Virus record (IMG/VR): IMGVR_UViG_3300027985_000695
Span: 1 to 63,746 of that record
Length of the DNA: 63,746 nucleotides
Origin: a virus
Taxonomy: Duplodnaviria > Caudoviricetes
Strand: one strand, 5' to 3'
In this document: one piece after another, positions 145 to 60,867 of the stretch
Position numbering within the stretch: position 1 is the first letter of the stretch
How the letters are laid out: every line of letters starts with the position of its first letter
Translations under genes and position numbers: made by a program
Notes under the pieces: generated by a model
What the model was told of the DNA's origin: nothing
Seen by the model: only the letters and a program-made list of their open reading frames with translations
The model's database searches: none

Positions 145-1947
145 GACCAGCTGGCCGAGAGTCAGGTCGGCGGCTATGAGAGCGTCATCAGGAAGTGCGT
201 GAAGTCTGGGAATCTCTTCGGCACCGGCATCCTGAAAGGCCCGCTCGTCAGGCGCGAGGAAAAGAAGCAGTGGGCGCCGGATCAGTCGGGCAAATGGAAC
301 TATGAAACCGTAAGGCGCCCCTCCGGCCCCGGAGTTTCCCCGCAGGGAATGCCGCCCACCGGCCCTGTCCGTCCCCCTGCGCCCCCGCAAGGGCCGGGGG
401 CGGGCTTTGTACCGGGAGGGGCTTTCAACGCGCCTCAGAACGCCCCCCAAGGCATGCCGCAGGGCATGCCGCCCCAAGCCGCTCCCGAGATGCCTGGACA
501 GCCCCCTGTGGCCCCGCCGCCGCAGGATCAGCCTGTCATCGAGAAGAAGCCGTACATCGAGTGCGTTCCGGTCTGGGATATCTATCCCGACATGAGCGCA
601 ACGTCCCTTGAGGACGCGCAATTCATCTTTCAGCGCAGCGTAATGACGAAAAAGGACTTGCTCGACCTGGCGAAGCGCGTCGATTTCGACGGCGAGCGCC
701 TGATGAACTACATCAAGGAGATGCCGAACGGCGACGCCGACGACTGGGAAACTTTCGAGCAGGAACTCAATTCGATGGGCGGCGACAGGGACTCCAACCC
801 GCAGCGCAGCCGCAAATACGAGTTCTTGGAGTATTGGGGACTCCTGTCGTCGGAAGAGCTCGAAGAGGCCGGCGCGACAATCCCCGAAGAGCTCAAAGGG
901 CTTGATGTATGGGCGAACGTCTGCGTCGTCGGCGATGTCGTCGTAAAGGCCAAGATGAACCCGCTCAAGGCATCAACGATGCCGTTCTACTTCTACTACT
1001 ACCAGAAGGACGAGACGAGCATCTTCGGAGAGGGCGTTCCCGACATCATCCGCGATATTCAGGATGTGCTCAACTCTGCCATTCGCCTATTGATCGACAA
1101 CGCCGCGCATTCGTCCGGCCCGATCTACGAGGTGAACCCGTACATGCTTCAGTCCGGCGAAGACCCGCTCGACATCAGCCCGTACAGGGTGTTCCTGCGA
1201 GCGGACGACGCCATGAACGCCGACAAGAAGTCGGTGCATATCCACGAGATACCGTCGCAGATATCCGATGCGATAAGCATCATCCAACTGTGCGAGAAGT
1301 ACCTCGACGACACGTCGGGCATACCTCGCTTCGACCATGCCGACAGCGACCTCGGCGGCGCCGGTGAAACCGCCGCCGGCCTGTCCATGCTGATGAACCG
1401 CTCAAACGCCTCCATCTCCGAACAGATCAAGGAGTTTGAGGAAGCCGTGATCATCAGGCTCATTACTGCGCTCTACCACTGGAACATGCAGTTTGGCAGC
1501 GCGAGGGATGCGAAGGGCGACATGAGCGTCGTCGTCGGCGGCGCGCAGGTTGTCCAGGCCAAGGAGGCCCGCGTCAACACGCTGATGACCTTCAGGGCGC
1601 AGATAGGCAACGACCCGGCGCTGATGGCGCTTGTGAAGTGGCCCGAGTTCCTGCGCGTGGTCGCGGATAACGCCGAGATACCTGAGAGCGTCATCTGCTC
1701 CGAGAAGGAGTACGAACAGATTCAGAATCAGCAGCAGCAAGAGATGGCCGCTGCTCAGGCCAATGAAGCGATGAAGCAGTTCATCGCCGAGTCGAAAAGG
1801 TTGCAGATGACTCCGGGCGAAGTGCTGCTCGACCTCGCGATGCGCGCCGGCCTTGTTGTCGATCCGAAGAAGGCGCAGCAGCTTGAACAGCAAACCAAGC
1901 CGCTTGAGCAAGTGCGGCAGATGGGGATGCAAAATGGCCAAGGATAG
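1..1947 (+). CDS. Portal protein, C-terminal part (gene starts at 63303; about 748 aa in total)
   Basis: The frame is open from base 1. It has podovirus-portal-like motifs (GNLFGTGILKGP, WDIYPD, SIFGEGVPDIIRDIQ..NSAIRLLIDNA) and lies between the terminase/lysis block and the head genes. Confidence 0.88.
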   Translation, partial: TLDQQTLTSLIKDLIMQNGGKRPTDDVILDAVRVMADSSAEKMERTIMDQLAESQVGGYESVIRKCVKSGNLFGTGILKGPLVRREEKKQWAPDQSGKWNYETVRRPSGPGVSPQGMPPTGPVRPPAPPQGPGAGFVPGGAFNAPQNAPQGMPQGMPPQAAPEMPGQPPVAPPPQDQPVIEKKPYIECVPVWDIYPDMSATSLEDAQFIFQRSVMTKKDLLDLAKRVDFDGERLMNYIKEMPNGDADDWETFEQELNSMGGDRDSNPQRSRKYEFLEYWGLLSSEELEEAGATIPEELKGLDVWANVCVVGDVVVKAKMNPLKASTMPFYFYYYQKDETSIFGEGVPDIIRDIQDVLNSAIRLLIDNAAHSSGPIYEVNPYMLQSGEDPLDISPYRVFLRADDAMNADKKSVHIHEIPSQISDAISIIQLCEKYLDDTSGIPRFDHADSDLGGAGETAAGLSMLMNRSNASISEQIKEFEEAVIIRLITALYHWNMQFGSARDAKGDMSVVVGGAQVVQAKEARVNTLMTFRAQIGNDPALMALVKWPEFLRVVADNAEIPESVICSEKEYEQIQNQQQQEMAAAQANEAMKQFIAESKRLQMTPGEVLLDLAMRAGLVVDPKKAQQLEQQTKPLEQVRQMGMQNGQG

Positions 1948-2962
1948 CGCAGACAGCGAATCTTACAGCGGCAACATGAGCACCGGCAATGTCGGAGGCT
2001 CGTCCGATTCTTCAGGATCGTCTTCAGGCTCGTCTTCCGGCAAGGGGTCGTCGAAGGGATCGTCTTCAAGCAAGTCGTCCGACTCCGATAAGAACTCGTT
2101 CGACGATGCGGAGTTTGAAGCCACCCAAAAGGCGCTGGCCGAGGAAGACGAGAAGCAGAGGGCTCTTGGCATCTCTAACGTCGAGATGAACAGAGGCTTG
2201 CGCTACTCTCAAGACCCCGCAGCCGCATCGGACATCGCTACCGCCAGAGGGTTCGGACTCACATCCGACAAGGGAAAGGACATCCTCGCCGACTTCGACC
2301 CCGATCCCGACTGGGTTGACAATCTGAGCAACTACGGGTGGGGCGACCTTGAAACCTCGTTCCGCCGCGGCGACATCGGAGATTTCGGATACGACCTTGG
2401 CCGCTTCGTCTCCCCTGTGGGCATGACAACGGGTCGAGTCCTCGGCGATGTCGGGCAAGGCGTTCTGAGTGGCGTCATGGGGGCGTTGCCGGGAGGCAGC
2501 GCCCTGACGCTTGGAGGCAAGGCGCTCGGCGCGGCAATGGGACGCCAGGCCACCGAAAGCCTGTCCAACAAGCAAATGACCACAGGTGACAGTTTCAGGA
2601 CGCAGGACTCCTACGCTTCAGGCAAGCCCGCCGCCGAGACGGGGCGCAACGCATTCGACGGCTCCATGAGCGAGCACGACGCCGGCGCTGCAACCGGCGG
2701 CATCGCCGATGGTGAACTTGAGGCCGGCCAGGATTTTATGAAGAAGAAGGTCGAGGGAGGCAATGTCTTTGACACCGACCAAGCGACAGCGCGCAAAACG
2801 CAGCAGAAGACGCAAGGCGCACAGGGGGCGACGGGCGCTCAAGGGGCGCAAGGAGCCGAGAGCGCGTCGATAAGCAGGACACCGATAATGTCGAGCGAGC
2901 AAATGCGGCGCAACCCGTTCGCCAGCTTCATGCAAAACATAGCGCCGTACATGAGGGCGTGA
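1934..2962 (+). CDS. Hypothetical Ser/Gly-rich protein, probably virion-associated
   Basis: ATG at 1934 overlaps the portal end; genome-typical codon usage. Confidence 0.7.
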   Translation: MAKDSADSESYSGNMSTGNVGGSSDSSGSSSGSSSGKGSSKGSSSSKSSDSDKNSFDDAEFEATQKALAEEDEKQRALGISNVEMNRGLRYSQDPAAASDIATARGFGLTSDKGKDILADFDPDPDWVDNLSNYGWGDLETSFRRGDIGDFGYDLGRFVSPVGMTTGRVLGDVGQGVLSGVMGALPGGSALTLGGKALGAAMGRQATESLSNKQMTTGDSFRTQDSYASGKPAAETGRNAFDGSMSEHDAGAATGGIADGELEAGQDFMKKKVEGGNVFDTDQATARKTQQKTQGAQGATGAQGAQGAESASISRTPIMSSEQMRRNPFASFMQNIAPYMRA

Positions 2963-3183
2963 ACATGAGCGACACGACTGCGACCTACAGAAACGCGGTG
3001 AACACGATCCGCAGGTTTTACGGAACCCCGTGCTACGAGGCTGCCATCGACCTTCTGAACTCCATGCAGTCGCTTAAAAACGACGAGATGGTGAATGGCA
3101 CCGACACCGAGGAAATGGTAAGGGCTCAAGGTGGAGTCCTGGCGATAAAGCGCATCGTATCCGACTTGAAGGCTACGGTGTAG
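2959..3183 (+). CDS. Small hypothetical protein near the portal gene
   Basis: 74-aa ORF overlapping the previous stop codon. Confidence 0.7.
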   Translation: MNMSDTTATYRNAVNTIRRFYGTPCYEAAIDLLNSMQSLKNDEMVNGTDTEEMVRAQGGVLAIKRIVSDLKATV

Positions 3184-3193
3184 GAGTAACATC

Positions 3194-9568: not shown

Positions 9569-9570
9569 CA

Positions 9571-15538: not shown

Positions 15539-16249
15539 ATGCAGCTTTATACCTACCATAAGGTGACTGGCGAATTCCTCGGCGCCCTTGAGGCGAACAT
15601 CGATCCTCTTGAGTCGCAGCGCGCCGGTGGCCCCGTGTACGTGACGACTGTCCCGCACACCACCACCGAACGCCCCCCTGTGGCCGAGCAGGGGAAGGTG
15701 CGCGTCTTCAAGTCAGGGTCATGGTCGCTCGTCGAAGACCACAGGGGGAAGAAGGCTTACGCGACGGCGAACGGCGCCTTGCTTGTCGTCAGCGCGCTCG
15801 GGCCGCTTTCTGAAGCGTACACCTTCAAGGAGTACCCCGGAGACGGGTACTACTGGGACGGCGAGAACTGGACCCCCGACATCGCCAAGCTGGCCACGGC
15901 CGCGATGGCTGATGTCGACCTTACCGCCGAGGCGCTGCGACAGAGGGTGCTGACGCAGGGGTCCGGCCAGGCTCTCGCCTACAAGAAGAAGGAAGAGGAA
16001 GCGCTTGCATGCCTGTCCGACAGCAGTCCGTCCGAGGAAGACTATCCGTTCCTCGCCGCTGAAGTCGGCGTTACCGCCGACACCCTTCTCGACGTTGCGC
16101 AGACGGTTGTGGACGCTGCGAATGCGTGGTATGCCGTAGGCGTCGAACTTGAGCGGCTTCGCCTCACCGCGAAGAAGCGCCTCGCCAGCGCGACGACTGC
16201 CGGCGAGATCGCGTCCATAGTCAACGGGATAGAGTGGCCCGAGGTCTAA
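15539..16249 (+). CDS. Tail fibre assembly chaperone-like protein
   Basis: LYTYH..TGEFLG..DPLES..WSLVEDHRG pattern; immediately follows the fibre gene. Confidence 0.8.
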   Translation: MQLYTYHKVTGEFLGALEANIDPLESQRAGGPVYVTTVPHTTTERPPVAEQGKVRVFKSGSWSLVEDHRGKKAYATANGALLVVSALGPLSEAYTFKEYPGDGYYWDGENWTPDIAKLATAAMADVDLTAEALRQRVLTQGSGQALAYKKKEEEALACLSDSSPSEEDYPFLAAEVGVTADTLLDVAQTVVDAANAWYAVGVELERLRLTAKKRLASATTAGEIASIVNGIEWPEV

Positions 16250-16822: not shown

Positions 16823-18670
16823 ATGGCCCTGTACCTGAATGTAAGAGGATTCGGCGGCGAAGAGCCGCGCACATCGTCGCGCCTGATCGCGGACAACGCC
16901 GCGCAGCTTGCAGAGAATTCCAAGCTGCTTTCAGGCGAGATTCGTCCTTTCTACGACCCACGCACGGTGAACACGCCGTACAAGACCGACGCGCTTCAAA
17001 GCATATTTCTCTACAAAGACGCCTACTGGTGTCACTGGGAAGAAGACGTCTGCGTTCAGCGCGGCCCAGTTGCCGGCGACACGAAAGAGCGCACCTACAT
17101 CACCGGCCTCGACGTGCCCCGCGTCTTCAACTCCGATGGAGTCGCATCAGGTGGTTCTTCCGACTACCCGGCGCTCACGTACCCTCTCGGCGTCCCGGCG
17201 CCTGACAATTCAGGTTCAACATTCACCGCCACCGACACAGGGACAGGAGGATCTGGAGCAGACCGCGATGTCGTGTACTGCTACACCTACGTAACAGCGT
17301 GGGGAGAGGAAGGACCGATATCCGAAACGTCGAACGCCGTGACGTGCATGAACGGTGAGCAGGTTGACCTGACGAACATCACGCCATGTCCGTCAGGGCG
17401 CAACCTCGACAAAATTCGCATCTACCGCTCGCTCTCTGGTTACTCGTCCGACTACTGGGCGCGAGTGGCGGAAGTGGCGGGTACAACGACATCGTATTCC
17501 GACACGGTCCTCGACGACATGCTCGGCGCAGAGCTCACGTCTCTCACATGGCTTGCGCCTGACGAGGACTTGCACGGCATCTGCGCGCACCCAGGAGGAT
17601 TCCTCGTCGGCTTCTTCGACAACACGATCTCGTGCTCGGTGCCGTACTTCCCCCATGCTTGGCCTGTGGCGAACCAGTACACGATCCCATACGACATCAT
17701 GGGCATCGGCGTGTACGAGGACAAGATCGTCGTCGCAACGACTGCGTTCCCATACGTCTTTTCAGGCTCTTCACCGAGCGCTCTTCGCGGCGACAGGATA
17801 CCGTCGCGGCAACCGTGCCTCTCAAGGCGCGGCGTCGTATCTGGCGAGCTTGGCGTCCTGTGGCCTTCTCCTGACGGCATATACGGCGTTGGGCCACAGG
17901 GGACCGGCCTCATTACGAGCGACATCCTGACCAAGAACGAGTGGAACAAGTTCAACCCGCAGACCATTCACGCCGCCGTCGCCGACAACAAGTACATCGC
18001 CTTCTACAAGACGAGCGTCGATGGCGGCGTAATCAGCGGGCGCGGCTTCTCGGTTGACCTTGCGGAGCCTACGGCGAAGTTCATCGAATTCGACTTTTAC
18101 GCGCATGCCCTGTACGCCGATCCGTACACCGACAACCTCTACATGGCCATGCGCAACGAGGACGAGGACGGGAACTACATTCAGAAGTGGGAGGGCGGCA
18201 GCACCCGCAAGCAGTTCACATGGCGCAGCAAAACTTTCGGATGCGTCCCGACCAACCCCGCAGCGGCGCAGGTCATTGCCGACTTTACTCCGAGCGAGGC
18301 TGAATTTACGCAGGCTGAACTCGACGACTTTGAGGCTGCGCGTGACATCATCATTGCTGACAACGAGGACTTGATCACGTATGACCAGACTCGTGGTTAC
18401 ATGAGCGGCCAAATGTTTGGAGAGTACGTTTTTTCCGGTTCTGCAATCAAAGAGGCCGGCGACATTTTTTCAGACACGACGTACTTGAACTTCAAGCTGA
18501 TCGCAGACGGAATCGTTGTTTTCCAAAAGGCGATCAGCGACTGCGAGCCTTTCAGGATTCCGTCGAACTTCCTTGCAAGGGAACTCGCGTTTGAATTGGA
18601 AGGCAACGCTTTCATCAAGAACGTCAGCGTGGCGTCAAGCGTTACGACAATATATCAAGCGGGGTACTAG
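16823..18670 (+). CDS. Tail tubular/stabilisation protein
   Basis: GFGGE.PR....LI..NAAQLAEN..L.SGEIRP N-terminus, YCYTYVTAWGEEGP and FTWRSK motifs of podoviral tail proteins. Confidence 0.75.
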   Translation: MALYLNVRGFGGEEPRTSSRLIADNAAQLAENSKLLSGEIRPFYDPRTVNTPYKTDALQSIFLYKDAYWCHWEEDVCVQRGPVAGDTKERTYITGLDVPRVFNSDGVASGGSSDYPALTYPLGVPAPDNSGSTFTATDTGTGGSGADRDVVYCYTYVTAWGEEGPISETSNAVTCMNGEQVDLTNITPCPSGRNLDKIRIYRSLSGYSSDYWARVAEVAGTTTSYSDTVLDDMLGAELTSLTWLAPDEDLHGICAHPGGFLVGFFDNTISCSVPYFPHAWPVANQYTIPYDIMGIGVYEDKIVVATTAFPYVFSGSSPSALRGDRIPSRQPCLSRRGVVSGELGVLWPSPDGIYGVGPQGTGLITSDILTKNEWNKFNPQTIHAAVADNKYIAFYKTSVDGGVISGRGFSVDLAEPTAKFIEFDFYAHALYADPYTDNLYMAMRNEDEDGNYIQKWEGGSTRKQFTWRSKTFGCVPTNPAAAQVIADFTPSEAEFTQAELDDFEAARDIIIADNEDLITYDQTRGYMSGQMFGEYVFSGSAIKEAGDIFSDTTYLNFKLIADGIVVFQKAISDCEPFRIPSNFLARELAFELEGNAFIKNVSVASSVTTIYQAGY

Positions 18671-19982: not shown

Positions 19983-22310
19983 ATGCCCTTCAATCTCGAC
20001 AATTTCTTAGGCGGCGTAGGCACCGGGTATCTCAATCAGGAGAAGCTATACGACCAGCAGGCGCGCACCGACATCGCCGACAGGTCGATGACGCTTGAGG
20101 AAGAGGAAGCGCTTAGAAAAGAGCAGGAACTTGAGCGTCAGCTTGCGGAGCAAGCCCGCATCGCTTCCATTCTTTCTCCCGGCGTATATGGCCGGCAGGG
20201 CGCCACAGGGGCTGTTGGGGCGCAGGGACAGCCGTTGCGCGAGCACGACCTTCCCGTCAACTCGAACCTCACTGTGGGTGGCGTTGACCCGACGTCAGAA
20301 CTCGGCAAAGCCATCGCCTCGTACACGCAGAACGACCCCGGCCTCGGCGACTACCTGAGCGCTGTCGCTCAGGCAGAGAGCGGCGGCAACCTTAATGCGC
20401 GGTCTGACACGTCGAGCGCAAGCGGGCCGTTCCAGTTCATCAACGGAACAAAAGAAGGGCTGTTCGGAGACTACGGCGAGGAGATGAAGCGTCTCGGTCT
20501 TCCTTTCGACGTGACGAGTCCGCAGACCGCGGCGTACCTCGCTCGCAAGTACACGCTCGACAACGACGCGCAGTTCGCGAAGCTTAACGGCAGGGCTCCG
20601 ACAAACGGCGAGCGGTACATGAACGCCTTCCTCGGCGTCAACGGCTACAACCGCATGATGAAAGATGCGGAGCGGCTCGGGTGGGATGCGCCTGCGCATC
20701 TCATGGCCAGCGCCGAAGCCGTGGCCGCGAACAGCAGCGTCTTCTACGACAGCAAGGGAAACCCCCGCACCGCAAAGCAGGTGCGCGACCTAATGACCAA
20801 CAAGATCAGCCCGCAGGAAGCCGCGCGCGGCGTCGGGACCGGCAAGGAGTACCTGTACGAACCGCAGCGAGGCTACGGCGTCAGCGGCGTTCCGCAGATG
20901 AACATGGAACAGATCAACGCCATCATGGCCGACCCGAATATCGGGACAGAAACCAAGATGAAGTTCATGCAGGCGCTCAACACCAACGCCAGCACTGTGG
21001 AATCAGGTCGCAGCAATCTGGAAAGCGAGAACTACCGCTCGGCGAACATGGCGCAGGAGGATCAGCAGCATCGTGAGCGCATGGCCTTCAACTACGCGCA
21101 ACTGAACGAGCAAATCAGAAAGAACGACCTCGATGCGTCGTCTCCTGAAGAGATTCTCTCCAAGGCGATGATCCAGGGCGACAAGGTCGTGTACATGTCG
21201 AAAGACGGCAAGACGCACAACCTCGAAATTACGCCCGATGAATTCATCGCCACCCGCGATGCAGTCCTGCGCGGAAGCGGCAAAGGCGGGAAGAGCGGGT
21301 CCGGGTCAGGCTCCGGCGGCACAGGCGTTGCGGCATGGCAGTACGATCAGTTGAGCAAGGCGTTCTCTCCGTATGTTGCAAGGACCAGCAACATCAACGA
21401 GGACGACCTCGACAACACCGAACTCGGCAAGTCCGCCGCTCAGATGGCCCAGAACCAGCTTTCGGCTGTGGTGTCCGAAGTCACCAACGTCTTCAGGGAG
21501 AACGGCATGGAGCCGCAGCTTGACGAGCGCACGTTAAACGCGCTCGGCGATCAGGCCGGCAAGCGATATTCCGAACTGTACCCTGAAGTGAAAAAGAACA
21601 TCATCGCAAAGACGAAAGATGCAGGCATCGAAGTGCGGCCTGAAGAGGTCGAATTCCGCACGATGCAGGCGACGATGGGCATAGTCAAGAACGACATGCT
21701 GAAAAGCGGTATGGCTGCTGAGATTCTTTCAGGCGGGAAAGTCAAGATGCGCCCGAAGACAACGCCGCAGGATACCGCTGACAAGGCGTCACCTGCGTCC
21801 GGCGCTCAAGCTGGACCGTATACCGCCAGGCTCGCAGACCAGAAGAAGCGCGTTGAAGGCGATGCTTCCGGCGCTATGGCGCAGGTAGCTTCGGCCGGCG
21901 GCGTCGGAGCCACGCGCGGTCCAAACGCTCCGATTGCGCCCGCCGCTCCTTCACCTCAGAAGAAGGTCGTCCAGGGCGAGAACGGCGACGTTGTTGGCGG
22001 CATATACGGGAACTACGGCGGCGACAACGCCATCAAGCGAGGCGTTCGCTTCTACAGCGGCTACGACGGCGCGAAGTACATCACGGACTCCATCGGTGCA
22101 GGAATCAAGAAGGTCATGGACACGTTGAGTATGCCAGAGGCTACACAGATGTTCCTTATGAAAAAGTACCCGCAGCTTGAGCAGATTGTAACTGGCCTTC
22201 CCGACGAACAGAAGGTATACCTCTTGAAAGCGTTCCGTGACAGCAGCCCTGAGCAGATCGACGCGATGCTGCAAGAAATCATCAGAATTAACACGGACAG
22301 GGGGCGTTGA
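19983..22310 (+). CDS. Internal virion protein with lytic transglycosylase domain
   Basis: AVAQAESGGNLNARSDTSSASGPFQFINGT..YMNAFLG SLT-like catalytic motifs at about 20360-20660. Confidence 0.8.
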   Translation: MPFNLDNFLGGVGTGYLNQEKLYDQQARTDIADRSMTLEEEEALRKEQELERQLAEQARIASILSPGVYGRQGATGAVGAQGQPLREHDLPVNSNLTVGGVDPTSELGKAIASYTQNDPGLGDYLSAVAQAESGGNLNARSDTSSASGPFQFINGTKEGLFGDYGEEMKRLGLPFDVTSPQTAAYLARKYTLDNDAQFAKLNGRAPTNGERYMNAFLGVNGYNRMMKDAERLGWDAPAHLMASAEAVAANSSVFYDSKGNPRTAKQVRDLMTNKISPQEAARGVGTGKEYLYEPQRGYGVSGVPQMNMEQINAIMADPNIGTETKMKFMQALNTNASTVESGRSNLESENYRSANMAQEDQQHRERMAFNYAQLNEQIRKNDLDASSPEEILSKAMIQGDKVVYMSKDGKTHNLEITPDEFIATRDAVLRGSGKGGKSGSGSGSGGTGVAAWQYDQLSKAFSPYVARTSNINEDDLDNTELGKSAAQMAQNQLSAVVSEVTNVFRENGMEPQLDERTLNALGDQAGKRYSELYPEVKKNIIAKTKDAGIEVRPEEVEFRTMQATMGIVKNDMLKSGMAAEILSGGKVKMRPKTTPQDTADKASPASGAQAGPYTARLADQKKRVEGDASGAMAQVASAGGVGATRGPNAPIAPAAPSPQKKVVQGENGDVVGGIYGNYGGDNAIKRGVRFYSGYDGAKYITDSIGAGIKKVMDTLSMPEATQMFLMKKYPQLEQIVTGLPDEQKVYLLKAFRDSSPEQIDAMLQEIIRINTDRGR

Positions 22311-25300
22311 TGCCTTACGAACCGTATCAGGATGAAGATCCGAACATCCTCGACCAAGAGAGCGCGCAAGCCGCTCAGGCTGTTGACTCCAAGCTTGAGC
22401 GGCTTTCCGATGTCGGCAACGGCGACGATGAGATAGAATACGCGCTGAAGATGCTCAAGGGCAGCGCCCCGCCGCCAGAGACTTCAGGCGACTCCTATTT
22501 CGATGCGCTCGGCGTCTTCGGCCGCACTCTTAAAGACCTTCCCACGCACATCAAGGCGTCAGTCGCGCAGGGCTTTTACGACCCGGAGGACATGACGCTT
22601 GACCGCTCGTCCTGGCATGAAAAGGCCATGGACGAGAGCAATGCAGCGATGGAAGAGGCCCGTCGCTACTACGATCCTGTCCTCGGCAAGAACATCGTTC
22701 CCGGCATTACTGCGGGGGACATACTTGACACCGGCCCGTCTGTCGGATTCTCAACCGCGAGCATGGGCGCCTACGGCGTCGGAGCGCTTGCCGGCGGCGC
22801 CGTCGGCATGCCGACCGTTGGCGGCGGCGCAGCGTCTCTGTTCGCCACCAAGGAGATGGCCACCGGCCAGTTCAACGACATGCTCGGTCGTGCGCTCGCC
22901 GAATCTGCGAAAGCCGAAGGCAGGAACTACACGCAGGCCGACTTGCAGCAGGACGTCGCATACTTCCAGAGCGAGGCCGACAAGTACGGATGGTACGAAT
23001 CCGCCCTTGAAACCATCGGCAACATCGTCATGGGCAAGACGTTCGGCGCGGGGAAGGAAGCGTTCTCAGGTCTTCTCAACAAGGTTTTCGGGGAGAAGGT
23101 CGGCGGCTACCTCGGCAAGAACATCGTCACGCGAACCCTGTCGAAGCTTGGGATCAACACTGCGGAGGAACTCCCCTCCGAGACTGCGACGCAGATAGGA
23201 CAGGGAGGCGTCGAGGCTGACGTTGCCAACCAACTGAGAGGCATCGGACTTGAAATGCCGGGCTGGCGCACCGAAGCGCCGGGCGTGACGCAGGCTCTCG
23301 GCGAGGTCGCCGCCCCTGTGGCCGCTCAAACGCTCTTCACCGGCGGCCTGGCGGCAGGTACGCGAGGCGTCTACGACCTTGCAAAGAAGGGCATGGAAGT
23401 CTCCCGCCGCGCCGACGATGAACTCGCAACGCAAGCCGCGAACGAGGAAGCTGCGCGCACCATTCCTCCGAAGACCTCGCCCGTCGAGATGCCGCAACCC
23501 GAAGCCGCCCCTGTGGAACCACAGGGGGAGGGCTTCACGCCTGTTCGCGGCGCCCTTGATACAATGCAGATCGTGAGCGACCCTGAAGAGAACGCGCGGT
23601 ACATAGCTGCGATGAAGACGAATTTGAAGATCGCCGACGAGGAAGATATCAGCGACAGGGCCGAGAGGCTCTTTGCCGAGGGGAAGTCTCGCGCCGAGGT
23701 AATGACCGCGCTGAAGCAGGAACTTCAGGCCATCGAAGAGAAGCACGGCATCAAGCCTGCTTCAATCATTAACGCCGTCGTCAGGGACCGCAAGATTCCT
23801 GGCTTTGAGAGCGAGGGCAGGAAACAGTGGCTTGCCGACATGGCCGGGTACTACAAGTCTCAGGATGCCGCGAAGCCGAAGGTTGAGTTTGATGAGGATG
23901 GAGTCGAGGTTGCGCAGAAAGACCTCAACCATCCTTATGGCCACCTGCGCGGCATTCCTCGTCCGATGTCGAATTACCTCGGCAACAAGCGCAGCATGAT
24001 CCAGGCAGGCGCCTTCATCGGAGCCATTGCCGACAAGATCAAGCAGAGCAACATCGTTGACGTCTTCGCCGGTTCAAGCCTTCTGAGCCAGCTTGTCGGC
24101 AAGCAGAACCCGAACGCCAAGCGCGTCGTCAACGACCTCAACGCCGACGTGTTCAACTTCCATGATGTTGCCCGCAACAAGCCCGACGAGTTGATGTCTG
24201 AGGTGTCGAACAGCCTCAACAAGATTCGCTCAGTCATGTCGCGCTTCAACGAAGGAGGCAAGCTTGCGCATTCTGAGATTGCCGATCTTTGGAAGGAAAT
24301 CAAAACGCGCAGCGAGTTCGGCGATCCGGTTCAGAAAGCCGCTGCGATGGCTCTTGTGTCCGGCCAACTCGGTCAATTCGGCAAGGCAAAAGACACCGTT
24401 GACGCCGAGTCCGGCGTCCAGGGAAGTCAGCGCATCATCAAGGGCGAAGGCGCATCGAAGCCGTATGCCTGGACTGCATCTACAAAGAGCCTTGACAACT
24501 ACGAGGAGACGCTCAGGCAGTTCGTTGCCGATGCAAAGAACACTGAAGTAACGAACAAGGACGCCACCGAAGTATTGAACAATGCTACGGCTGACGGACT
24601 GTACCTTGTCGATCCTCCTTATGTTGCAGGTGAGGGGAAGGAAGGAGTCAACGACTATAAGGAAGGGAAGGAATTGACTTCCCTGGAAGGCGCCTTATCC
24701 TTTATAAATGGCCCCCTGAAAGCCGCCCATGAAAAGGGCGCGGGCTTGGTTTACACAAACAATTTTACCCCGGAACTTGCGACTGCATTGCGCGACCTCG
24801 GCTTTGCAGTCAGGAAGGTAAAGAATCTCAAGAGCCAGAACACCGGAAGCGAGGCAGGGAGCAGAGATGAAATCGTCGCCTACAACTCAGCAGCCGCAGG
24901 CAGGGATGTTGATGGACAGAATGCAGATGCTCGGCGAGGGGACAGTGCCACCGCAGGTGTTCGACAGCCTGACGCCGGAGGATCAGAGAACGTTCCTGAC
25001 GGAACCGGACCCGAAGATGTGGAGTCCAAGCCTGCAAGCAGCGATGCAGGAGTACCTGACGCTGGAACGCGACCCGGAGATGGAGGACGAGGAGCCGCAG
25101 CCGCAGGCATCGGAGAGCAGCATACCCTCCCCGGCGTAGAGACTGCTGAGAAGCAGGAAGAGTCTCCCGAGTCAAAGCCATCTCTTGCGGAGGCTTTGGA
25201 AGCGGCCAGCGACAAGCCCGCCAGAAGCCAGGAAGCGAAAAATCCGACCGAAGGTGCGCCGGAAGGGGAAAAACCCGCGACAGCGCCCCCTGTAGCCCCT

Positions 25301-33187: not shown

Positions 33188-33687
33188 GCAGTCAACACCT
33201 CAATGAATGCTTCCCCTGTGGCTCCGCCGCTGTCCATGTGCTCTCGCTCGGAGAGGTCCGGGTCGTAGTCCTCATACAGTTTGATGAGGCCTAGCAGCGC
33301 GTCGTTCCACAGGATGAGGCGGCGCTGGTTGTTCGCAGGAAGCTGGTCAACGAGGTCGGAGACTACGAGAATGACCGCCGACAGGAAGTCTCTCGCGTCG
33401 ATGTGATCCCCGTACCGCGTTTGTATGATGCGCTTGAGCATCATTAGCGGGCGCTGGTAGGCGATGGTTTCCTTGACGTCGAGGACGAACCTGCCATGAC
33501 CGTCCGTTCTTCCGTAGGCGTATTTAGCCGCCTCGGACGCGCTTGAGTCGATGACGACAAGCATGTTTTCGATGTCTTTCGGGATGTCCATCTTCGCCTC
33601 TTCATACGCCCCGCGACATGCGTCTACGGCGCCGCGAACAAGGTCGGCGGTAAGCAGTTGCCGCCGCTGCGATCTCGACATTTTCAT
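33184..33687 (-). CDS. Hypothetical protein
   Basis: 167-aa ORF with typical codon usage. Confidence 0.7.
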   Translation of the reverse strand: MKMSRSQRRQLLTADLVRGAVDACRGAYEEAKMDIPKDIENMLVVIDSSASEAAKYAYGRTDGHGRFVLDVKETIAYQRPLMMLKRIIQTRYGDHIDARDFLSAVILVVSDLVDQLPANNQRRLILWNDALLGLIKLYEDYDPDLSEREHMDSGGATGEAFIEVLTA

Positions 33688-35201: not shown

Positions 35202-35212
35202 AAATGTCAAAA

Positions 35213-35296: not shown

Positions 35297-35310
35297 ATTG
35301 ATGGCATGAT

Positions 35311-35451: not shown

Positions 35452-35457
35452 TTTCAT

Positions 35458-35486
35458 ACAGTACATATCCATATATACTTTGTCAA
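35458..35486 (-). promoter_or_regulatory. Sigma70-type promoter for the Y RNA/Ro60 operon
   Basis: TTGACA-17 nt-TACTGT; the predicted +1 (about 35451) coincides with the 5' end of YrlA. Confidence 0.8.
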
Positions 35487-35509
35487 CGGTTTTTTGAAAA
35501 AAGTTATCC

Positions 35510-36293: not shown

Positions 36294-36304
36294 GTTGCTC
36301 TCCT

Positions 36305-36784: not shown

Positions 36785-36785
36785 C

Positions 36786-37241
36786 CTATTCACCCCCTCC
36801 GTGATTCTTGCAGGTTATCTCGACTCCGCAAGGCGCCGGGGCGGGGATGTTCATCTCCTTGCGAACTTCCTGCGCAAGCGGCGCCTCCGCCCTGATGACG
36901 CCCTCAATCCCACACTCCGAGCATTTGAAGTAGACGCCGCCCTCTTCAACGAGGCGCTTGTGCTCCATGACCTCTTGCTCGCATGCCTCGCACAGCCCGC
37001 CGGGAAGGCGCTCGTTGTCCTCGATGCGATCCACCTTGCCGCCGCGCAGATTGGTCTTGCACTTCCCGCAGTTCTCTGACGGCCGTGAGCCAAAGTTGAC
37101 CGTGCCGCAGGACGGGCACGTGATCTTGTTCTTCCTGTTGCCGATGAGCATCAACTCGCGTCCATCGCCTCCGCAGCGCGGGCAATATGTGAGATGCGGG
37201 TTGACGCCGAGTTTCGGGTCAAGAGTAATGCTGCCGCTCAT
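36786..37241 (-). CDS. Zn-finger protein
   Basis: GVNPHLTYCPRCG and several CxxC pairs; RBS AGGGGG. Confidence 0.75.
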   Translation of the reverse strand: MSGSITLDPKLGVNPHLTYCPRCGGDGRELMLIGNRKNKITCPSCGTVNFGSRPSENCGKCKTNLRGGKVDRIEDNERLPGGLCEACEQEVMEHKRLVEEGGVYFKCSECGIEGVIRAEAPLAQEVRKEMNIPAPAPCGVEITCKNHGGGE

Positions 37242-37256
37242 GGTATCCCCCTGTGG

Positions 37257-37859
37257 TTACTGGTTTGCCGCTTCCATCGCGGCGAAAGGATCAATCGAAG
37301 AAGCCTGAGCATCCGGCGGCAGCATCCTGCCAAGTTCGGCGACAGACTTCTTGAACGCATCGCGTGTCTTCCTGGCGCTGACAGCTGCACGCTTCGCAAG
37401 GGCGGCGTTGTCGCCGCGCTTCTCAAGCTGCCGCGTATACTTTCTGCGGTTTGAGCAGAAATGAGAGCAGTACCGCTGCGTCGGAGTCCTCTTGACGAAC
37501 GGATCGCCGCACACCAAGCACTCGGCGTCAGGTTCTTTCTGCTTTGCGACCTTGTTGCGGTATGCGATTGCGCAGGTGCAGCAGCAGAAGAATTGCGTCT
37601 TGCCCTTGACCTGATTCGTATAGCGCTCAAACTGCTTTCCGCAGTTTCCGCAGACGAGGCTCGTCATGGACCTCGGCTTGCGACCCTCTCCGCTTGCCTC
37701 GCGCTTCTTGGCCGTTCGCTTCATCAGCTTGATTGCGCATGCCGGCGAGCACGTCTTCTTTTTCTTCTGACGGTAGTTCGCGTAGAACTCCGCCCCACAT
37801 ATCTCGCAGATTCTCGTTTCAGTCTTGAGCACGCGCCCTCCTTTCCCTGGCCGACACAT
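37257..37859 (-). CDS. Repeated Zn-ribbon (CxxCG..F...CS..C) DNA-binding-like protein
   Basis: Three CxxC...C-x3-C units. Confidence 0.7.
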   Translation of the reverse strand: MCRPGKGGRVLKTETRICEICGAEFYANYRQKKKKTCSPACAIKLMKRTAKKREASGEGRKPRSMTSLVCGNCGKQFERYTNQVKGKTQFFCCCTCAIAYRNKVAKQKEPDAECLVCGDPFVKRTPTQRYCSHFCSNRRKYTRQLEKRGDNAALAKRAAVSARKTRDAFKKSVAELGRMLPPDAQASSIDPFAAMEAANQ

Positions 37860-38474: not shown

Positions 38475-38543
38475 AAAAACCCCCTTGCCTTGATGACGAG
38501 GTATATGGCAGCAGCTATGCACGCCATCACCAGCGCCAGGTCT

Positions 38544-38870
38544 TTAATGTTGCATGTCGGAGTTTTCATCGATCTTCACCGACATTGAGATGTGTTCTTC
38601 AAGCGATGCGATGATTTCGGAAGGCGGAACGCTTTCCAGCTTGAAAACCATGATGCCGACGAGATGCATAATCACCTCGTCTCTGAGCATCAACGTGGCT
38701 ATTACCCTCGCGATCTCATGCGTCGGCATGCAAGAGATGCAAGTCATGACTCCATCATCGTTGCAGGACATGAGGAAGAACATGTTGCTGTCGCCGACCT
38801 TCTTTGAAGCTTCCTTCTTCATTGATTCTATGATGCCGTGGATTCTCGGATCATCACTCGAAATTTCCAT
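38544..38870 (-). CDS. Hypothetical protein (first gene of the leftward block)
   Basis: RBS AGGGG before ATG 38870. Confidence 0.65.
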   Translation of the reverse strand: MEISSDDPRIHGIIESMKKEASKKVGDSNMFFLMSCNDDGVMTCISCMPTHEIARVIATLMLRDEVIMHLVGIMVFKLESVPPSEIIASLEEHISMSVKIDENSDMQH

Positions 38871-39452: not shown

Positions 39453-41117
39453 ATGGAGTTTCTACAGATCGGCGACGGCCGCATAGGCGTTCGTTGCCCG
39501 TTCGGACTCAACCCGATAATGCGCAGCATCCGAGGCGCCGAGTGGCAGAACGAACTCAAGGCGTGGATGGTTCCATGCGACGAGGCGACCGCCGGAGCGA
39601 TTATAGACGGGCTTGGCGACGTAGCGGTCAAGAAGGCGAAAAACGCGGCTCTCGTGACCGATTTGGCCCCGAAGGCGCGGGGCGTCGTCAGGGAGTTTCC
39701 AAGCGAGTTGCCGAACCTGCCGGATATCAACAAGGAAGCCTGGCGTCACCAGCGCGAAGCCTTCCATGTTGCAAGAAACGCTCCGTCATGCAAGGCGCAT
39801 AATGGATCGTACCTTGCTATGGACATGGGCACAGGCAAGTCGCTCACGACCATCGGCCTCATAAACCAAGCAATCAACGATGCCACAGGGGGGTTCAAGG
39901 CGCTCATTTCGTGCCCGAAGAGCGTCATCGACGTATGGCCGCATGAATTTACAAAGCACAGCGAGCGCGACGACTACATCATACACCCGATGAACGGCTC
40001 AGGCACGATCAAGAAGAAGACCGAGCGCGCATACACGGCAGCTGTCAAGGCGAAGTCTAGCGGAAGGCCGCTCATCCTCGTAGGCAACTACGACATGATA
40101 TGGAGACCGCCGTTCGGCGACTGGGCGAGGAAAATGGCATGGGACATGGTAATCGGCGACGAGGGGCACAAGCTGAAGAGTCCTACCGGGCGCGCATCGC
40201 GCTACTTCAAGGACTTGGGCAAACTGGTCCGCATGCGCCTTCTCTTGTCGGGGACGCCTATGCCGCACTCGCCGCTCGACTTGTTCGCGCAGTTGCGCTT
40301 CCTGGCGCCGAAGATTTTAGGATGGAGCTACACGGCTTTCAAGAACGAGTACGCCGTGATGAGCCAGTTCAACCAGCACCAAGTCATCGGCTACCGTAAC
40401 CAGCAAAAGCTTGCAATGCTGTTCGGAGCCATCGCCTACTACGTCAACAAGCGCGACTGCCTTGACCTCCCCCCTGTGGAGGACGTCACGGTAAACGTTC
40501 AGCTTGAGCCGAAGACGGCGAAGCAGTACCGGCTGCTTGAGCGCGACATGCACCTTCAGCTTGAGCGAGGCGAAGTCACCGCAGCGAACGCGCTCGTCAA
40601 GCTTTTGAGATTGCAGCAGCTTGCCGCAGGGTTTCTCAAGACCGACGATGATCGCATCGTTGAGATAGGCGGCGAGAAGGAGTCAGCGCTTCTTGAGATC
40701 ATCGACAGCATCCCGTCGTATGAACCGTTTGTGACGTTTTGCAGGTTCCACACGGACCTCGACGCGGTTGCAAGGTGCTCAGAGAAGCTTGGACGCACAT
40801 GCGGAGAGTTGTCGGGAAGGCGCAACGACCTTGCGGCCTGGCAGCGTGGAGAATTCGATGACCTCGCCGTCCAGATTCAAGCCGGCGGCGTCGGCATAGA
40901 CCTGACTAGGGCATGTTATGGAGCGTATTACACGCTCGGCTACTCGCTTGGCGAATACGAGCAGTCGAGGGCGCGCCTTGACAGACCGGGGCAAACCCGC
41001 CCTGTGACGTACTATCACCTTATTGCCGCAGGAACGGTGGACGAGCGCGTTTATTCAGCGCTCTCATCCCGTGAAGAGGTGATCGGCTACGTTATCAACC
41101 AAATGCGGCATGCATAA
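39453..41117 (+). CDS. SNF2-family helicase
   Basis: AMDMGTGKS, DEGH, LSGTP, AGGVGIDLT, QSRARLDRPGQ. Confidence 0.93.
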   Translation: MEFLQIGDGRIGVRCPFGLNPIMRSIRGAEWQNELKAWMVPCDEATAGAIIDGLGDVAVKKAKNAALVTDLAPKARGVVREFPSELPNLPDINKEAWRHQREAFHVARNAPSCKAHNGSYLAMDMGTGKSLTTIGLINQAINDATGGFKALISCPKSVIDVWPHEFTKHSERDDYIIHPMNGSGTIKKKTERAYTAAVKAKSSGRPLILVGNYDMIWRPPFGDWARKMAWDMVIGDEGHKLKSPTGRASRYFKDLGKLVRMRLLLSGTPMPHSPLDLFAQLRFLAPKILGWSYTAFKNEYAVMSQFNQHQVIGYRNQQKLAMLFGAIAYYVNKRDCLDLPPVEDVTVNVQLEPKTAKQYRLLERDMHLQLERGEVTAANALVKLLRLQQLAAGFLKTDDDRIVEIGGEKESALLEIIDSIPSYEPFVTFCRFHTDLDAVARCSEKLGRTCGELSGRRNDLAAWQRGEFDDLAVQIQAGGVGIDLTRACYGAYYTLGYSLGEYEQSRARLDRPGQTRPVTYYHLIAAGTVDERVYSALSSREEVIGYVINQMRHA

Positions 41118-42774: not shown

Positions 42775-43524
42775 ATGGAATACGACATCAAGGAAGCCCT
42801 GGAGTTCATGCACGAAACCGGCAAGGAAACGCAGCGACTGCGCATGATCGACCCGCAGGAGTTCACGTTCCAGGGGCGCACGTTCGTCACCAACTCTGAA
42901 CGGTGCCGCGAAATCAGCCAGCGCGATTATCCGAAGGTCGAAATCTCGACCCTCAAAGGCGCCGTTGACTCCATCGTGGCCATCGGCGCCGGGACTGATT
43001 ACAGCGACATGATGGTGGTCGTCGAATCCTCCCGCGTCGTCAGCGTCGTTTCCCGCATCGTTGGCGACGCGAGAATCCGCGACACGTTCGTGGAGGCCGT
43101 GGCCGACACGCATCGCATGCCGACCTGCCATCTCAACCAGGAGGATTTCATCATCGCCATCAACACCTGCTTTGAGCCTGATGAAACCACCGAGACGCTG
43201 ATCAAGATCATCGGCTCTCTCAAGCAGGAATCCTCCGTGCAGCAGGACGACGACGGCATGAGCTCCAAGGTTCTGGTGCGCGACGGCATCATCTCCAACG
43301 CCGAGGTCACGCTCAAGAACCCAGTCACCCTGACGCCGCGGGCCTCGTTCCATGACGTTGACAACATCGAGCGCGAGTACATCCTCCGCATTCACAAGGG
43401 GCTGGAAGTCTCGCTGGTCCCGTGCAACGAGGAATGGGAACCGCTGATGAAGGCCAACGTCATGGCCCGCATCAAGGCTCTCATGGCCGAAGCGAACATC
43501 GACGGCATTCCTGTCGTGATGTAG
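42775..43524 (+). CDS. Conserved phage protein (second of the pair)
   Basis: QEDFIIA..DDDG.S..V..R.G....V.LKNPVTL.PR.SF. Confidence 0.75.
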   Translation: MEYDIKEALEFMHETGKETQRLRMIDPQEFTFQGRTFVTNSERCREISQRDYPKVEISTLKGAVDSIVAIGAGTDYSDMMVVVESSRVVSVVSRIVGDARIRDTFVEAVADTHRMPTCHLNQEDFIIAINTCFEPDETTETLIKIIGSLKQESSVQQDDDGMSSKVLVRDGIISNAEVTLKNPVTLTPRASFHDVDNIEREYILRIHKGLEVSLVPCNEEWEPLMKANVMARIKALMAEANIDGIPVVM

Positions 43525-43585
43525 CGATACCACAGGGGGAGGACGGCCTCCCCCTCAACCTTCAACACATTGAACGAGGATTACA

Positions 43586-59765: not shown

Positions 59766-59974
59766 TGATCTGTCCGAATCCTGAATGCCTCGCTGAGAAC
59801 GAGACTACTGTGCGAGATACTGACTCTTCTCACGGCTTTGCAGTTGTGCGTCTTAGAAGATGCAAGAAATGCGGGGCGGTGATAGAGACAGCGGAGGTCG
59901 TTACAGAGTGGCACATGCCTGTCACCCGTGACCGCGCCTCATCCCTCGCCGAAGCCTTGCACCTCAAAGAGTAA
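59762..59974 (+). CDS. NrdR-like Zn-ribbon protein
   Basis: CPNPEC...TTVRDT....RLRRCKKCG..IETAE. Confidence 0.75.
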   Translation: MMICPNPECLAENETTVRDTDSSHGFAVVRLRRCKKCGAVIETAEVVTEWHMPVTRDRASSLAEALHLKE

Positions 59975-60041
59975 ATCAACACATCTACCTTGCATCGCCG
60001 CCTCCATAGTGTTAATGGCCCGTAAACACTGGGAGGCGGCG

Positions 60042-60581
60042 ATGGCCAAGATAGCCCTGATCGTAGGACACAAGAAGCAGCGTCCAGGCTCCTGCAACCA
60101 GAGAGACGGTGTTTGCGAGTGGGGCGTCATGAACGAGTTGGTTGAAGACATCCTCTTCAGCTACTCAGGCAAGCACGACCTCAGAAAAGTTCTTCGCGTC
60201 ACATACGACACACTCCCCTACAGCGTAAACAAGGCCGGATTCGACATGGCCATCTCGTTTCATGCCAACGGAGGCCCGCCGAAGGCCACCGGCAGCGAAA
60301 CGATCTACTGCAAGCATAAGCCGTTGTCGCTTGAGTTCGCGCAGATCATGCATGAGCAGATCGTGGACGCGATGTGCCTGCGCGACCGCGGCATCATCAC
60401 GCCTTACAACGGTCGCGGCAGTCACATTCTGTGCGAGACGGACATGCCGTGCATCCTCATCGAGCCGTTCTTCATCACCAACGACGACGACCTCGACAAG
60501 TTCTTCGACGTCAGGTTCGACCTGATCTGGAATATCTGCGAAGGAATCGAGGAGGCGAGCCATGCCATCAAAATACCTTGA
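60042..60581 (+). CDS. N-acetylmuramoyl-L-alanine amidase (Amidase_3) endolysin
   Basis: IVGH, E, ISFHAN, GSE, LRDRGI, PCILIEPFF. Confidence 0.88.
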   Translation: MAKIALIVGHKKQRPGSCNQRDGVCEWGVMNELVEDILFSYSGKHDLRKVLRVTYDTLPYSVNKAGFDMAISFHANGGPPKATGSETIYCKHKPLSLEFAQIMHEQIVDAMCLRDRGIITPYNGRGSHILCETDMPCILIEPFFITNDDDLDKFFDVRFDLIWNICEGIEEASHAIKIP

Positions 60582-60867
60582 AGACGACGACGGCAACCAG
60601 TCGTCATCGCGCCTCTTCCTCATCTTCGGCGGCCTTGTCGCGCCTCTTCTGTGCCTCATCGTCTGGGCATACTCCATCTACAAGACGGGCATCTACTCGC
60701 CCCCCGGTTGGGAGGTTGCGGGCATGAGCGTCGTCCCCGGCGCGACGAAGGTCGGCGCCGACTTCGCGAAGCGCCGGCGTCCGAAGAAGCCCGAGCCGCA
60801 GGACGAGGAAGAGCTTGCAGGCTCCCCTGTGGACCCTGAGCTTTTGGAGGAACGAGGCGATGCCTGA
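60562..60867 (+). CDS. Putative holin
   Basis: LEDD.GN.SSSRL followed by a transmembrane segment; charged C-terminus; lies between two hydrolases. Confidence 0.65.
   Translation: MPSKYLEDDDGNQSSSRLFLIFGGLVAPLLCLIVWAYSIYKTGIYSPPGWEVAGMSVVPGATKVGADFAKRRRPKKPEPQDEEELAGSPVDPELLEERGDA

Follow-up and report, generated by a model that had tools for sequence, protein, structure and literature searches.

The window considered here is the viral record IMGVR_UViG_3300027985_000695 (Duplodnaviria; Caudoviricetes), which at 63,746 bases is complete with direct terminal repeats, and the element in question is a nine-base word that recurs along its whole length, reading CCCCTGTGG in one orientation and CCACAGGGG in the other. 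The terminal repeat is exact over 144 bp, which leaves a unique genome of 63,602 bp, and it contains no CCCCTGTGG. Our own crude codon-usage caller, a non-standard program, gave 76 genes covering 91% of the sequence. Scans of these gene calls against PHROG and Pfam describe a podovirus-like phage, in which a portal, a capsid of family phrog_1357, internal virion proteins, SNF2- and UvrD-type helicases and a 612-residue 'DNA polymerase/primase' could be recognised; scans of the genome for tRNAs and Rfam families gave no match. Its kinship to Burkholderia phage Bcep22 and Ralstonia phage GP4 is distant (the internal virion protein is ~30% identical), and no close relative was found in the collections searched; a megablast search with 20 kb of the phage against 50,697 phage records returned no match. 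Two public sequencing runs, X1 and X2, contain the tested 9 kb in full and may be where the DNA came from; the label of X1 is hydrothermal vent metagenome. The best capsid match, G411, has a GC content of 37% and only 8 of the 76 phage gene products in common (tblastn, E up to 1e-3), and gene subtraction against it was uninformative.

Selection on a nine-base word

All 17 exact copies listed in the original prediction were recovered with their positions and strands, the plus strand reading CCCCTGTGG 11 times and CCACAGGGG six times (Table 1). Dinucleotide shuffles of the sequence give a mean of 0.27 copies (sd 0.49, maximum 2, 100 shuffles) and an order-3 Markov model gives 0.36; with a ~50-fold excess, CCCCTGTGG is the most over-represented 9-mer of the genome. 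The enrichment is graded with word length: the core CCTGTGG / CCACAGG is present in 38 copies (7.4 expected) and the 8-mer CCACAGGG in 24 (1.5 expected), and a 12-base form, ACCACAGGGGGA, occurs six times. When up to one mismatch is allowed there are 46 sites, compared with 12.36 expected (sd 3.58, largest shuffle 23). The six one-mismatch examples that had been picked out by eye (4167, 14148, 19142, 29618, 58155 and 61218) are all among the confirmed features, as is the palindrome CCCCTGTGG-AA-CCACAGGGG at 23508-23527.

Fourteen of the 17 copies lie within gene calls and three are intergenic (~9% of the genome is non-coding). Against the 14 genic copies, shuffling synonymous codons within genes gave a mean of 0.54 (maximum 3), permuting codons within genes gave 0.25 (maximum 2), and a dicodon-preserving Euler shuffle of all codons gave 0.74 (maximum 4), with 500 shuffles in each case; the last of these keeps every codon-pair count and hence includes the motif's own pairs. 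It had been proposed that the excess might vanish under just such a null, for example if Pro-Val codon pairs accounted for it; when this was run, the excess persisted. Even in the commonest frame there are seven copies, compared with 0.338 expected from a first-order codon Markov model. The three shuffles rule out a codon artefact and, because the enrichment survives all three of them, the word is kept by selection at the DNA level. The part of the original prediction that called the word a selected DNA signal is thus supported; the candidates it named for that signal (a Chi-like element, a regulator, nucleoid or partition site, or a methylation-linked motif) fare less well, as described below.

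Seven of the eight genic copies on the coding strand read xCC-CCT-GTG-Gxx (Pro-Val), and three of the six on the opposite strand read xCC-ACA-GGG-Gxx, a frame preference that is best seen as the cheapest fit of the word into proteins. Of the 57 Pro-Val pairs, 14 are CCT-GTG, although CCT supplies only 175 of the 826 Pro codons, and half of those 14 pairs (7) are copies of the motif. A broader codon bias was also seen at this position: before Val, Pro is encoded by CCT in 29 of 57 cases, though CCT accounts for 21% of Pro codons (7 of the 29 are due to the motif), and by CCG in only 9 of 57, though CCG accounts for 49%.

As had been claimed, the copies show no tie to the direction of transcription: with the orientation of intergenic copies assigned from the strand of the neighbouring genes, the sense strand reads CCCCTGTGG eight times and CCACAGGGG nine times. 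Strand bias is not significant either (9-mer, 11 vs 6, binomial p=0.33; 8-mer, 16 vs 8, p=0.15). Copies are found on both strands over the whole genome at a density of about one per 2.7-3.7 kb (one per 3.7 kb for the 9-mer), and the largest gap between 8-mers, counting both strands, is 9,981 nt. The word does not tolerate change evenly. One-mismatch variants are in excess within the C-run, at position 1 (7 vs 1.14 expected), position 2 (8 vs 1.96) and position 4 (5 vs 1.01), and are without excess at G6 (0 vs 0.61), T7 (0 vs 1.89) and G8 (2 vs 2.11). The flanks are unconserved beyond ~2 nt; each of the two bases 5' of the word is a pyrimidine in 14 of the 17 copies (p=0.013 each).

These properties bear on whether the word has a function at all. 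A by-product of biased repair or recombination tracts, or the remnants of a short repeated insertion, would accommodate the random spacing of the copies, and any function of the word is so far only predicted. Such an origin is nevertheless very improbable: a longer element cannot be the source of the copies, given flanks that are unconserved beyond ~2 nt, and in addition rare codon choices keep the word in genes, its mismatch tolerance is position-specific, and it recurs in unrelated phages (see below). A repetitive extragenic palindrome (REP)-like hairpin repeat of the form CCTCCCCC-TGT-GGGGGAGG has also been ruled out. Only 1 of the 17 copies is followed by G, such that a REP-type stem cannot form, and the copy at 43530 is alone in overlapping a hairpin, GGGGGAGG-ACGG-CCTCCCCC (-10.5 kcal/mol, z -3.5), which has a different register.

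Table 1. Copies of the word, the primase gene and the candidate origin in the 63,746-base window
Feature	Position	Strand	Context
Exact copy	503..511	+	Portal/adaptor gene 46-1947; frame xCC-CCT-GTG-Gxx (PPVA)
Exact copy	2412..2420	+	Gene 1934-2962; frame PV (SPVG)
Exact copy	15675..15683	+	Tail-fibre-assembly-like gene 15539-16249 (PPVA)
Exact copy	15739..15747	-	Tail-fibre-assembly-like gene 15539-16249; 64 nt from the copy at 15675
Exact copy	17894..17902	-	Internal virion protein gene 16823-18670 (PQG)
Exact copy	20203..20211	-	Gene 19983-22310 (ATGA)
Exact copy	23313..23321	+	Gene 22310-30502 for a 2730-residue virion protein (APVA)
Two exact copies, palindrome	23508..23527		Gene for the 2730-residue protein; the surrounding 40 nt fold as single-stranded DNA at -12.2 kcal/mol, z -3.07
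Exact copy	33213..33221	+	3' end of gene 33184-33687 (-); 25 nt upstream of the start of the Mom-like gene (33187)
Exact copy, intergenic	37248..37256	+	Minus strand CCACAGGGGgataccATG, at the ribosome-binding position of gene 36786-37241
Exact copy	39883..39891	-	SNF2 helicase gene 39453-41117 (ATGG)
Exact copy	40471..40479	+	SNF2 helicase gene 39453-41117 (PPVE)
Exact copy, intergenic	43530..43538	-	5 nt past the end of gene 42775-43524
Exact copy	49693..49701	+	UvrD-like helicase gene 48490-50211; sole copy in frame PLW
Exact copy, intergenic	52904..52912	+	Minus strand CCACAGGGGgagaacATG, at the ribosome-binding position of gene 52679-52897
Exact copy	60824..60832	+	Gene 60562-60867 (SPVD)
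Archaeo-eukaryotic primase (AEP)-superfamily primase, 612 residues (predicted fold)	46104..47942	+	RepB'-like catalytic domain, then helical bundle; C-terminal part without assignment
Candidate replication origin	47943..48489		547 bp, non-coding, A+T-rich, directly 3' of the primase gene
Variant copy CGCCTGTGG	48021..48029	-	Left arm of an exact inverted pair (9 nt) on either side of the candidate origin
Variant copy CGCCTGTGG	48429..48437	+	Right arm of the inverted pair; 399 nt from the left arm

Hosts, relatives and other carriers of the word

Prophage relatives of the capsid gene are found mainly in Burkholderiales, and the tetranucleotide signature of the phage is nearest to that of a Janthinobacterium prophage region (r=0.71). 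Five genomes with prophage relatives contain 4-24 copies of the word, without enrichment. Among 401 Burkholderiales genomes the maximum is 68 copies, in a 3.5-Mb genome, and a reversed-word control is similar (this set includes four unpublished genomes, G384, G299, G031 and G210, with 3, 4, 8 and 11 copies, on which the conclusion does not depend); among 301 genomes across the phylum it is 181 copies in 6.7 Mb, the densest case, at one per 37 kb. None of the 401 + 301 genomes comes within ten-fold of the density in the phage, which would mean about a thousand copies in a genome of 6.7 Mb. No host-wide word was thus found in the genomes sampled (5 + 401 + 301). It may be noted that two genomes of the phylum sample, G639 and G481 (6.7 and 6.5 Mb), have 181 and 101 copies of the 9-mer compared with 15 and 7 of the reversed control, a 12-14-fold difference, yet these amount to one copy per 37-64 kb.

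Nor is the word a trait of the phage's lineage. Eighty loci around capsid relatives (55-66% identity; 1,100,829 bases) contain seven copies of the 9-mer in all, and five longer relatives have 0-3 copies of the 8-mer. Similar-looking enriched words in two relatives, L066 and L032, proved to be a tandem repeat and an Ala/Thr coding repeat, respectively.

The word is found instead in a handful of unrelated phages. When IMG/VR was scanned for inverted pairs of the word lying close together, 62 loci came up, most of which are lone hairpins. The carriers G410 (7.3 kb, with HK97-type head genes; 9-mer 5 vs 0.05 expected, CCTGTGGCA 7 vs 0.11) and G406 (52.7 kb; 9-mer 8 vs 0.55, its top 9-mer, and 7-mer 39 vs 12) are joined by a weak carrier, G408 (52 kb, complete; 8-mer 10 vs 1.7). 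A second scan, for the opposite inverted arrangement, returned mostly GC-rich elements of 6-9 kb whose copies of the word form the tip of a REP-like hairpin, together with L383 (6.7 kb; 7-mer 9 vs 1.6). A third, for the same-strand arrangement, yielded tandem coding repeats only; its five best loci are local one-strand clusters without a match to the primase profile. Finally, G422, which was found by a primase search, has 16 copies of CCTGTGG vs 2 of a control word in 16.7 kb. As a separate observation, eight viral contigs of 6-9 kb and 70-73% GC (L361, L384, L352, L363, L365, L372, L377 and L358), several of them from isolate genomes, were noted; they form a family with 3-8 copies of the REP-like hairpin CCTCCCCC-TGT-GGGGGAGG, behind which a second hairpin, GTCGGC-GAAG-GCCGAC, usually lies.

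The five carriers G410, G406, G408, L383 and G422 are unrelated to the phage and range in GC content from 0.48 to 0.65. Their tetranucleotide signatures are unlike that of the phage (r 0.23-0.45, ranks 32-39 of 41 GC-matched contigs), a discordance that argues against one host common to all. Searches for cultured relatives of G408 and G406 as host clues gave only matches of ~27-33% identity, to phages of many hosts.

A signal linked to the host, either a Chi-like hotspot that shields linear DNA from RecBCD/AddAB or a word of the uptake type belonging to a host clade outside the sample, would have some attractions. The density of Chi in E. coli is like the one per 3.7 kb of the phage word, and a common host factor would explain the presence of the word in phages of unrelated architecture. 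In addition, no recombinase or RecBCD inhibitor was detected among the phage gene calls, and phages without recombinases are reported to over-represent Chi (PMC3784561). Even so, the sampled genomes are unenriched, the carriers' GC contents and signatures argue for different hosts, and there is no significant orientation bias (11:6), whereas Chi works in one orientation. Known Chi sites are also shorter than the word, at 5-8 nt. A host-linked signal is therefore improbable, and the Chi-like element suggested in the original prediction is disfavoured accordingly.

The phage has an unusual load of DNA-modification genes. A modification island on the minus strand (31694-37241) encodes a C5-cytosine methyltransferase (31694-32701), a Mom-like protein (32717-33187) and a protein with a dATP/dGTP diphosphohydrolase N-terminal domain (35757-36293, PF18909), and an HNH endonuclease gene (37257-37832) lies just past it. 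Elsewhere, on the plus strand, the 2,730-residue virion-module protein (22310-30502) has a DNA methyltransferase region at residues 556-784, a HATPase_c_3 domain at 1158-1286 and a DarB-like helicase C-terminus at 2016-2725. Neither PurZ nor Que genes were detected in the phage. All four assessable carriers have modification genes: G406 and G408 have 7-deazaguanine (Que) genes, and G422 encodes, besides a methyltransferase and a thymidylate-synthase-like protein, a dGTP/dATP pyrophosphohydrolase that is 48.6% identical to that of the phage. One could therefore picture a modification or anti-restriction word, in which copies marked by the C5-methyltransferase, the Mom-like protein or the methyltransferase domain of the DarB-like virion protein are protective or recognised. 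We consider this quite improbable: targets of modification and restriction are normally avoided or neutral, not ~50-fold enriched, and nothing predicts that a modification target should be enriched; moreover, the carriers' systems are of different kinds and the word departs from the Mom target consensus.

When the proteins of the phage, G406, G408 and G422 were compared all against all (BLASTP, E<1e-4), the SNF2 helicase was the sole common family. It does not predict the word: none of 72 viral loci of at least 8 kb with this helicase (out of 80 fetched) was enriched, their total being 112 copies where 103.7 are expected, and G411, which has the helicase, lacks the word. This result also bears on the possibility that double-stranded CCCCTGTGG is read, at every occurrence, by some other DNA-binding protein of the phage: a regulator, for example, a packaging factor, or a protein that coats the nucleoid or acts in partition. 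Selection on the DNA itself would be expected of such a site, two copies form a perfect palindrome, three of the 17 copies fall in non-coding DNA (~9% of the genome), where two coincide exactly with the ribosome-binding positions of minus-strand genes, and the phage has many small open reading frames without assigned function. On the other side, 14 of 17 copies are genic and unrelated to gene starts, and their orientation to transcription is random (8 vs 9), unlike that of stoperators; stoperator-type repressor sites, which keep to one orientation, were rejected for this reason. The four carriers share only the non-predictive SNF2 helicase, with no DNA-binding protein common to them at the BLASTP threshold, although a small, fast-evolving protein could escape such a search. 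On balance a duplex-binding reader is unlikely, and the regulator, nucleoid or partition site put forward in the original prediction is disfavoured with it.

The primase and its possible start signal

The original prediction's list of candidates did not contain start sites of a primase. The gene at 46104-47942 matches phrog_2478, 'DNA polymerase/primase' (E 3.3e-10). An AlphaFold2 model built from 19 homologs has a mean predicted local distance difference test (pLDDT) score of 80.3, and of >85 over most of residues 1-220, and it displays the AEP catalytic alpha/beta fold in Foldseek comparisons. The best match is full-length RepB' of RSF1010 (3h20, E 4.1e-8, 351 aligned columns); others are the RepB' catalytic domain (3h25, E 1.2e-4), the S-2L PrimPol (6zp9, E 1.5e-6, TM (target) 0.68) and the CAPP prim-pol. 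Residues D88 and D90 (DxD) and the motif RxPGTxNxK are invariant in an alignment of the 19 homologs, and D56 is nearly so; these aspartates are candidates for the acidic metal-binding residues, of which RepB' has three (D77, D78 and D134). The catalytic domain is followed by six predicted helices at residues 248-345 (pLDDT ~82-96; the bundle is seen within the whole-model comparison). Sequence searches with the primase and its profile against PDB sequences (phmmer and profile, E up to 1 and 10) gave no match, and neither did Pfam; a search for related loci with the single primase sequence found none. According to the model, then, this gene is an AEP-superfamily primase whose fold is nearest that of RepB'. 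The PHROG and Pfam scans of the gene calls detected no other primase, DnaG-type included, and no DNA polymerase, but only an exonuclease-subunit-like protein.

The gap directly downstream of the primase gene carries AAACGCC(A/G)CC iteron-like repeats and, to judge from its sequence, is probably the replication origin; it is bracketed by the inverted pair of variant copies listed in Table 1. If the origin is set at 48.2 kb, the 7-mer core is distributed as 13+/4- over the right arc and 9+/12- over the left (Fisher p=0.052), a lean in the direction expected of lagging-strand priming. Iteron-like clusters were also seen in viral contigs that encode relatives of the primase: in L189, L197, L204, L223 and L231, 10-16 copies of an 8-mer are clustered with periods of 9-36 nt, at no more than ~3 kb from the primase gene in L197 and L223 and at ~8.5 kb in L189 and L231. 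These clusters are probably origin iterons, with a different word in each contig.

Work on related enzymes indicates what a primase might read. RepB' starts with dATP on thymine 32 within a GTG triplet, and there is one site per strand of oriV (PMC8567376). Helix-bundle AEP enzymes read a short word on the single-stranded template through the helix-bundle domain and start at or next to it: GTG is required by ORF904 of pRN1, GTGG and GTGA are the best words for the NrS-1 prim-pol, and CCTG serves human PrimPol, BcMCM and TthPrimPol (PMC8718748). The enriched core of the phage word, CCTGTGG, consists of CCTG overlapping GTGG, the words read by this enzyme superfamily, and the part of it that corresponds to the family triplet and tetramer, G6-T7-G8, is the part least tolerant of change. 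Copies are present on both strands, over the whole replicon and at the scale of Okazaki fragments; their presence on both strands without a link to transcription would be expected of a signal that is read on single-stranded DNA of either polarity, and does not suit an RNA or promoter element.

We therefore favour, at somewhat less than an even chance, the reading that the word is the template start signal of the phage's own RepB'-type primase. The enrichment, the selection on DNA, the position-specific tolerance and, in the model, the primase fold are demonstrated; the pairing of primase and word is what we infer. Under such a mechanism, once the duplex is unwound, the strand bearing 5'-CCCCTGTGG-3' would be bound by the primase at its G-T-G(G) end. 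The primer would open with an A paired to one or other T of the word and copy the C-run to give 5'-A(CA)GGGG..., and a polymerase, presumably that of the host, would extend it. Copies on both strands, at about one per 2.7-3.7 kb, would serve discontinuous synthesis, and one variant copy per strand would flank the probable origin beside the primase gene. This reading is preferred because it alone explains together the transcription-blind spread over both strands, the lack of enrichment in sampled hosts, the identity of the core, the GTG-centred tolerance and the pair at the origin. Some comparative evidence is in line with it. The primase of G408 is homologous (hhalign probability 95%, E 3.5e-8, to profile column 298; it also has a Pfam RepB_primase match), that of G422 (983 residues) is 22% identical to the phage primase, and in 67 loci with primase relatives the core word occurs at 1.32 times expectation, compared with 1.05-1.08 times in three control sets.

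A number of results weigh against a primase start signal. Within the phage, the spacing of copies fits random placement, both overall and per strand (coefficients of variation 0.66 and 1.16, neither significant), and strand segregation by genome arc, when sought without supervision, is not significant (p 0.18-0.50). The lean about 48.2 kb, from an origin that was itself placed from sequence alone, reaches borderline significance with the 7-mer and none with the 8-mer (p 0.21) or the 9-mer (p 0.30). Among other genomes, the contigs with the closest full-length primase homologs (~27-31% identity) have one (G416), two (G418) and three (G419) copies, no more than of the control word, and only one of the 67 primase-bearing loci (L225) is individually significant. 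Of the carriers, G406, one of the clearest, has a zinc-ribbon/Toprim primase and no match to the phage primase family in the 66% of its genome examined, G422 was found via its primase and so is no independent case, and G410 and L383 are fragments without replication genes. Lastly, dispersed words are no stronger in primase-bearing loci, with a median top z of 6.9, than in controls, where it is 7.0, 6.7 and 6.8 (Mann-Whitney p = 0.72, 0.43 and 0.11), and many of the strong 8-mers of these loci are clustered iterons. A general link between the primase family and dispersed words is thus unsupported by this class-level test.

A more specific account, in which the phage acquired a plasmid-type site-specific primase and its 9-base start signal came to be written on both strands, with rare codons in genes, while unrelated phages converged on the optimum of a GTG core, is slightly less likely than the primase reading as a whole; under it, the genome would carry its own priming map. 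If the primase reading is true, the specificity of a primase would act on codon choice and word content throughout the genome of a phage. Sequence alone would then be enough to locate the priming sites of uncultured phages, plasmid primases with one site per strand would be linked to genome-wide discontinuous priming, and tools for primer-free DNA synthesis would gain a defined pair of enzyme and word. If that reading is wrong, a strongly selected signal, common to a handful of unrelated phages and unenriched in sampled hosts, still needs an explanation.

Several other features of the genome were observed. A second over-represented word, AGGTCTTTAA, has five exact copies compared with ~0.03 expected (order-3 Markov), at 32-41(-), 22530-22539(-), 31211-31220(+), 38538-38547(+) and 63634-63643(-), and a one-mismatch copy at 51095(-); two of the five are one site within the 144-bp terminal repeat, and all lie on the strand opposite to local transcription. 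Some 6-base palindromes are extremely avoided: none was observed of CTCGAG (22.4 expected), GGGCCC (11.3), CCCGGG (10.9), GGTACC (10.4), AGTACT (7.2) or AGATCT (7.1), which looks like strong counter-selection by restriction systems. A TROVE (Ro60-like) and vWA protein is encoded at 33755-35065 (-), next to a gap (35066-35756) of ~690 bases without a confident gene call, in which Rfam finds nothing at the gathering threshold; the usual partners of Ro60 proteins are Y RNAs. In the protein encoded at 61992-62885 (+), a response-regulator receiver domain (Pfam E 1.3e-17) and a PAS domain (Pfam E 2.8e-11) are fused.

Comparison with known systems

Several known systems scatter or read short words in a comparable manner. 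The stoperators of Cluster A mycobacteriophages are repressor sites scattered through genes and oriented with transcription. Like them, the present word is short and asymmetric and recurs in tens of copies through a phage genome, many of them genic; unlike them, it is found 8 times in the sense and 9 times in the antisense orientation, and no repressor has been identified. Chi in lambdoid phages without recombinases (Bobay, Touchon and Rocha 2013; PMC3784561) is likewise a short, asymmetric, G-rich word in strong excess in phage DNA, coding sequence included, with a kilobase-scale density. Chi, however, is the host's word, abundant in the host chromosome, used in one orientation and concentrated between the origin and the packaging site, whereas the phage word is unenriched in the sampled genomes, mixed in orientation and spread genome-wide.

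The helix-bundle AEP prim-pols (ORF904, NrS-1, and the PrimPol, TthPrimPol and BcMCM group) resemble the phage system in that they use short words on single-stranded DNA, two of which, CCTG and GTGG, are contained in the phage core (PMC8718748). As in the phage word, the GTG bases carry the most weight for NrS-1 and the fourth base carries less. They differ in that their words, as that source gives them, are of 3-4 nt (8 nt for one NrS-1 site, TTTGGTTA) and were defined in vitro, whereas the selected unit in the phage is of 7-9 nt and is defined by genome statistics alone. A literature search on phage genomes enriched for primase words turned up no such report among the matches listed.

The nearest parallel is with RSF1010, whose RepB' is the best structural match of the phage primase and has no sequence-level match to it. 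RepB' is site-specific, placing dATP opposite T in GTG and copying a C-containing stretch (PMC8567376); in the phage word, G-T-G is the critical part and a C-run lies 5' of it. RepB' also has one site per strand at the plasmid origin, according to the same source, and in the phage one variant copy per strand brackets the origin-like gap beside the primase gene. The two differ in that ssiA and ssiB are 40-nt hairpins present once per strand, whereas the phage word has 9 nt, no conserved hairpin and ~17-24 copies over 63.6 kb; furthermore, the plasmid replicates in leading-strand mode only. By analogy with these systems, the phage word may, as a tentative proposal, work like the site-specific priming of RepB' on its ssi sites or of NrS-1, differing from both as a short, hairpin-free word scattered over the whole genome.

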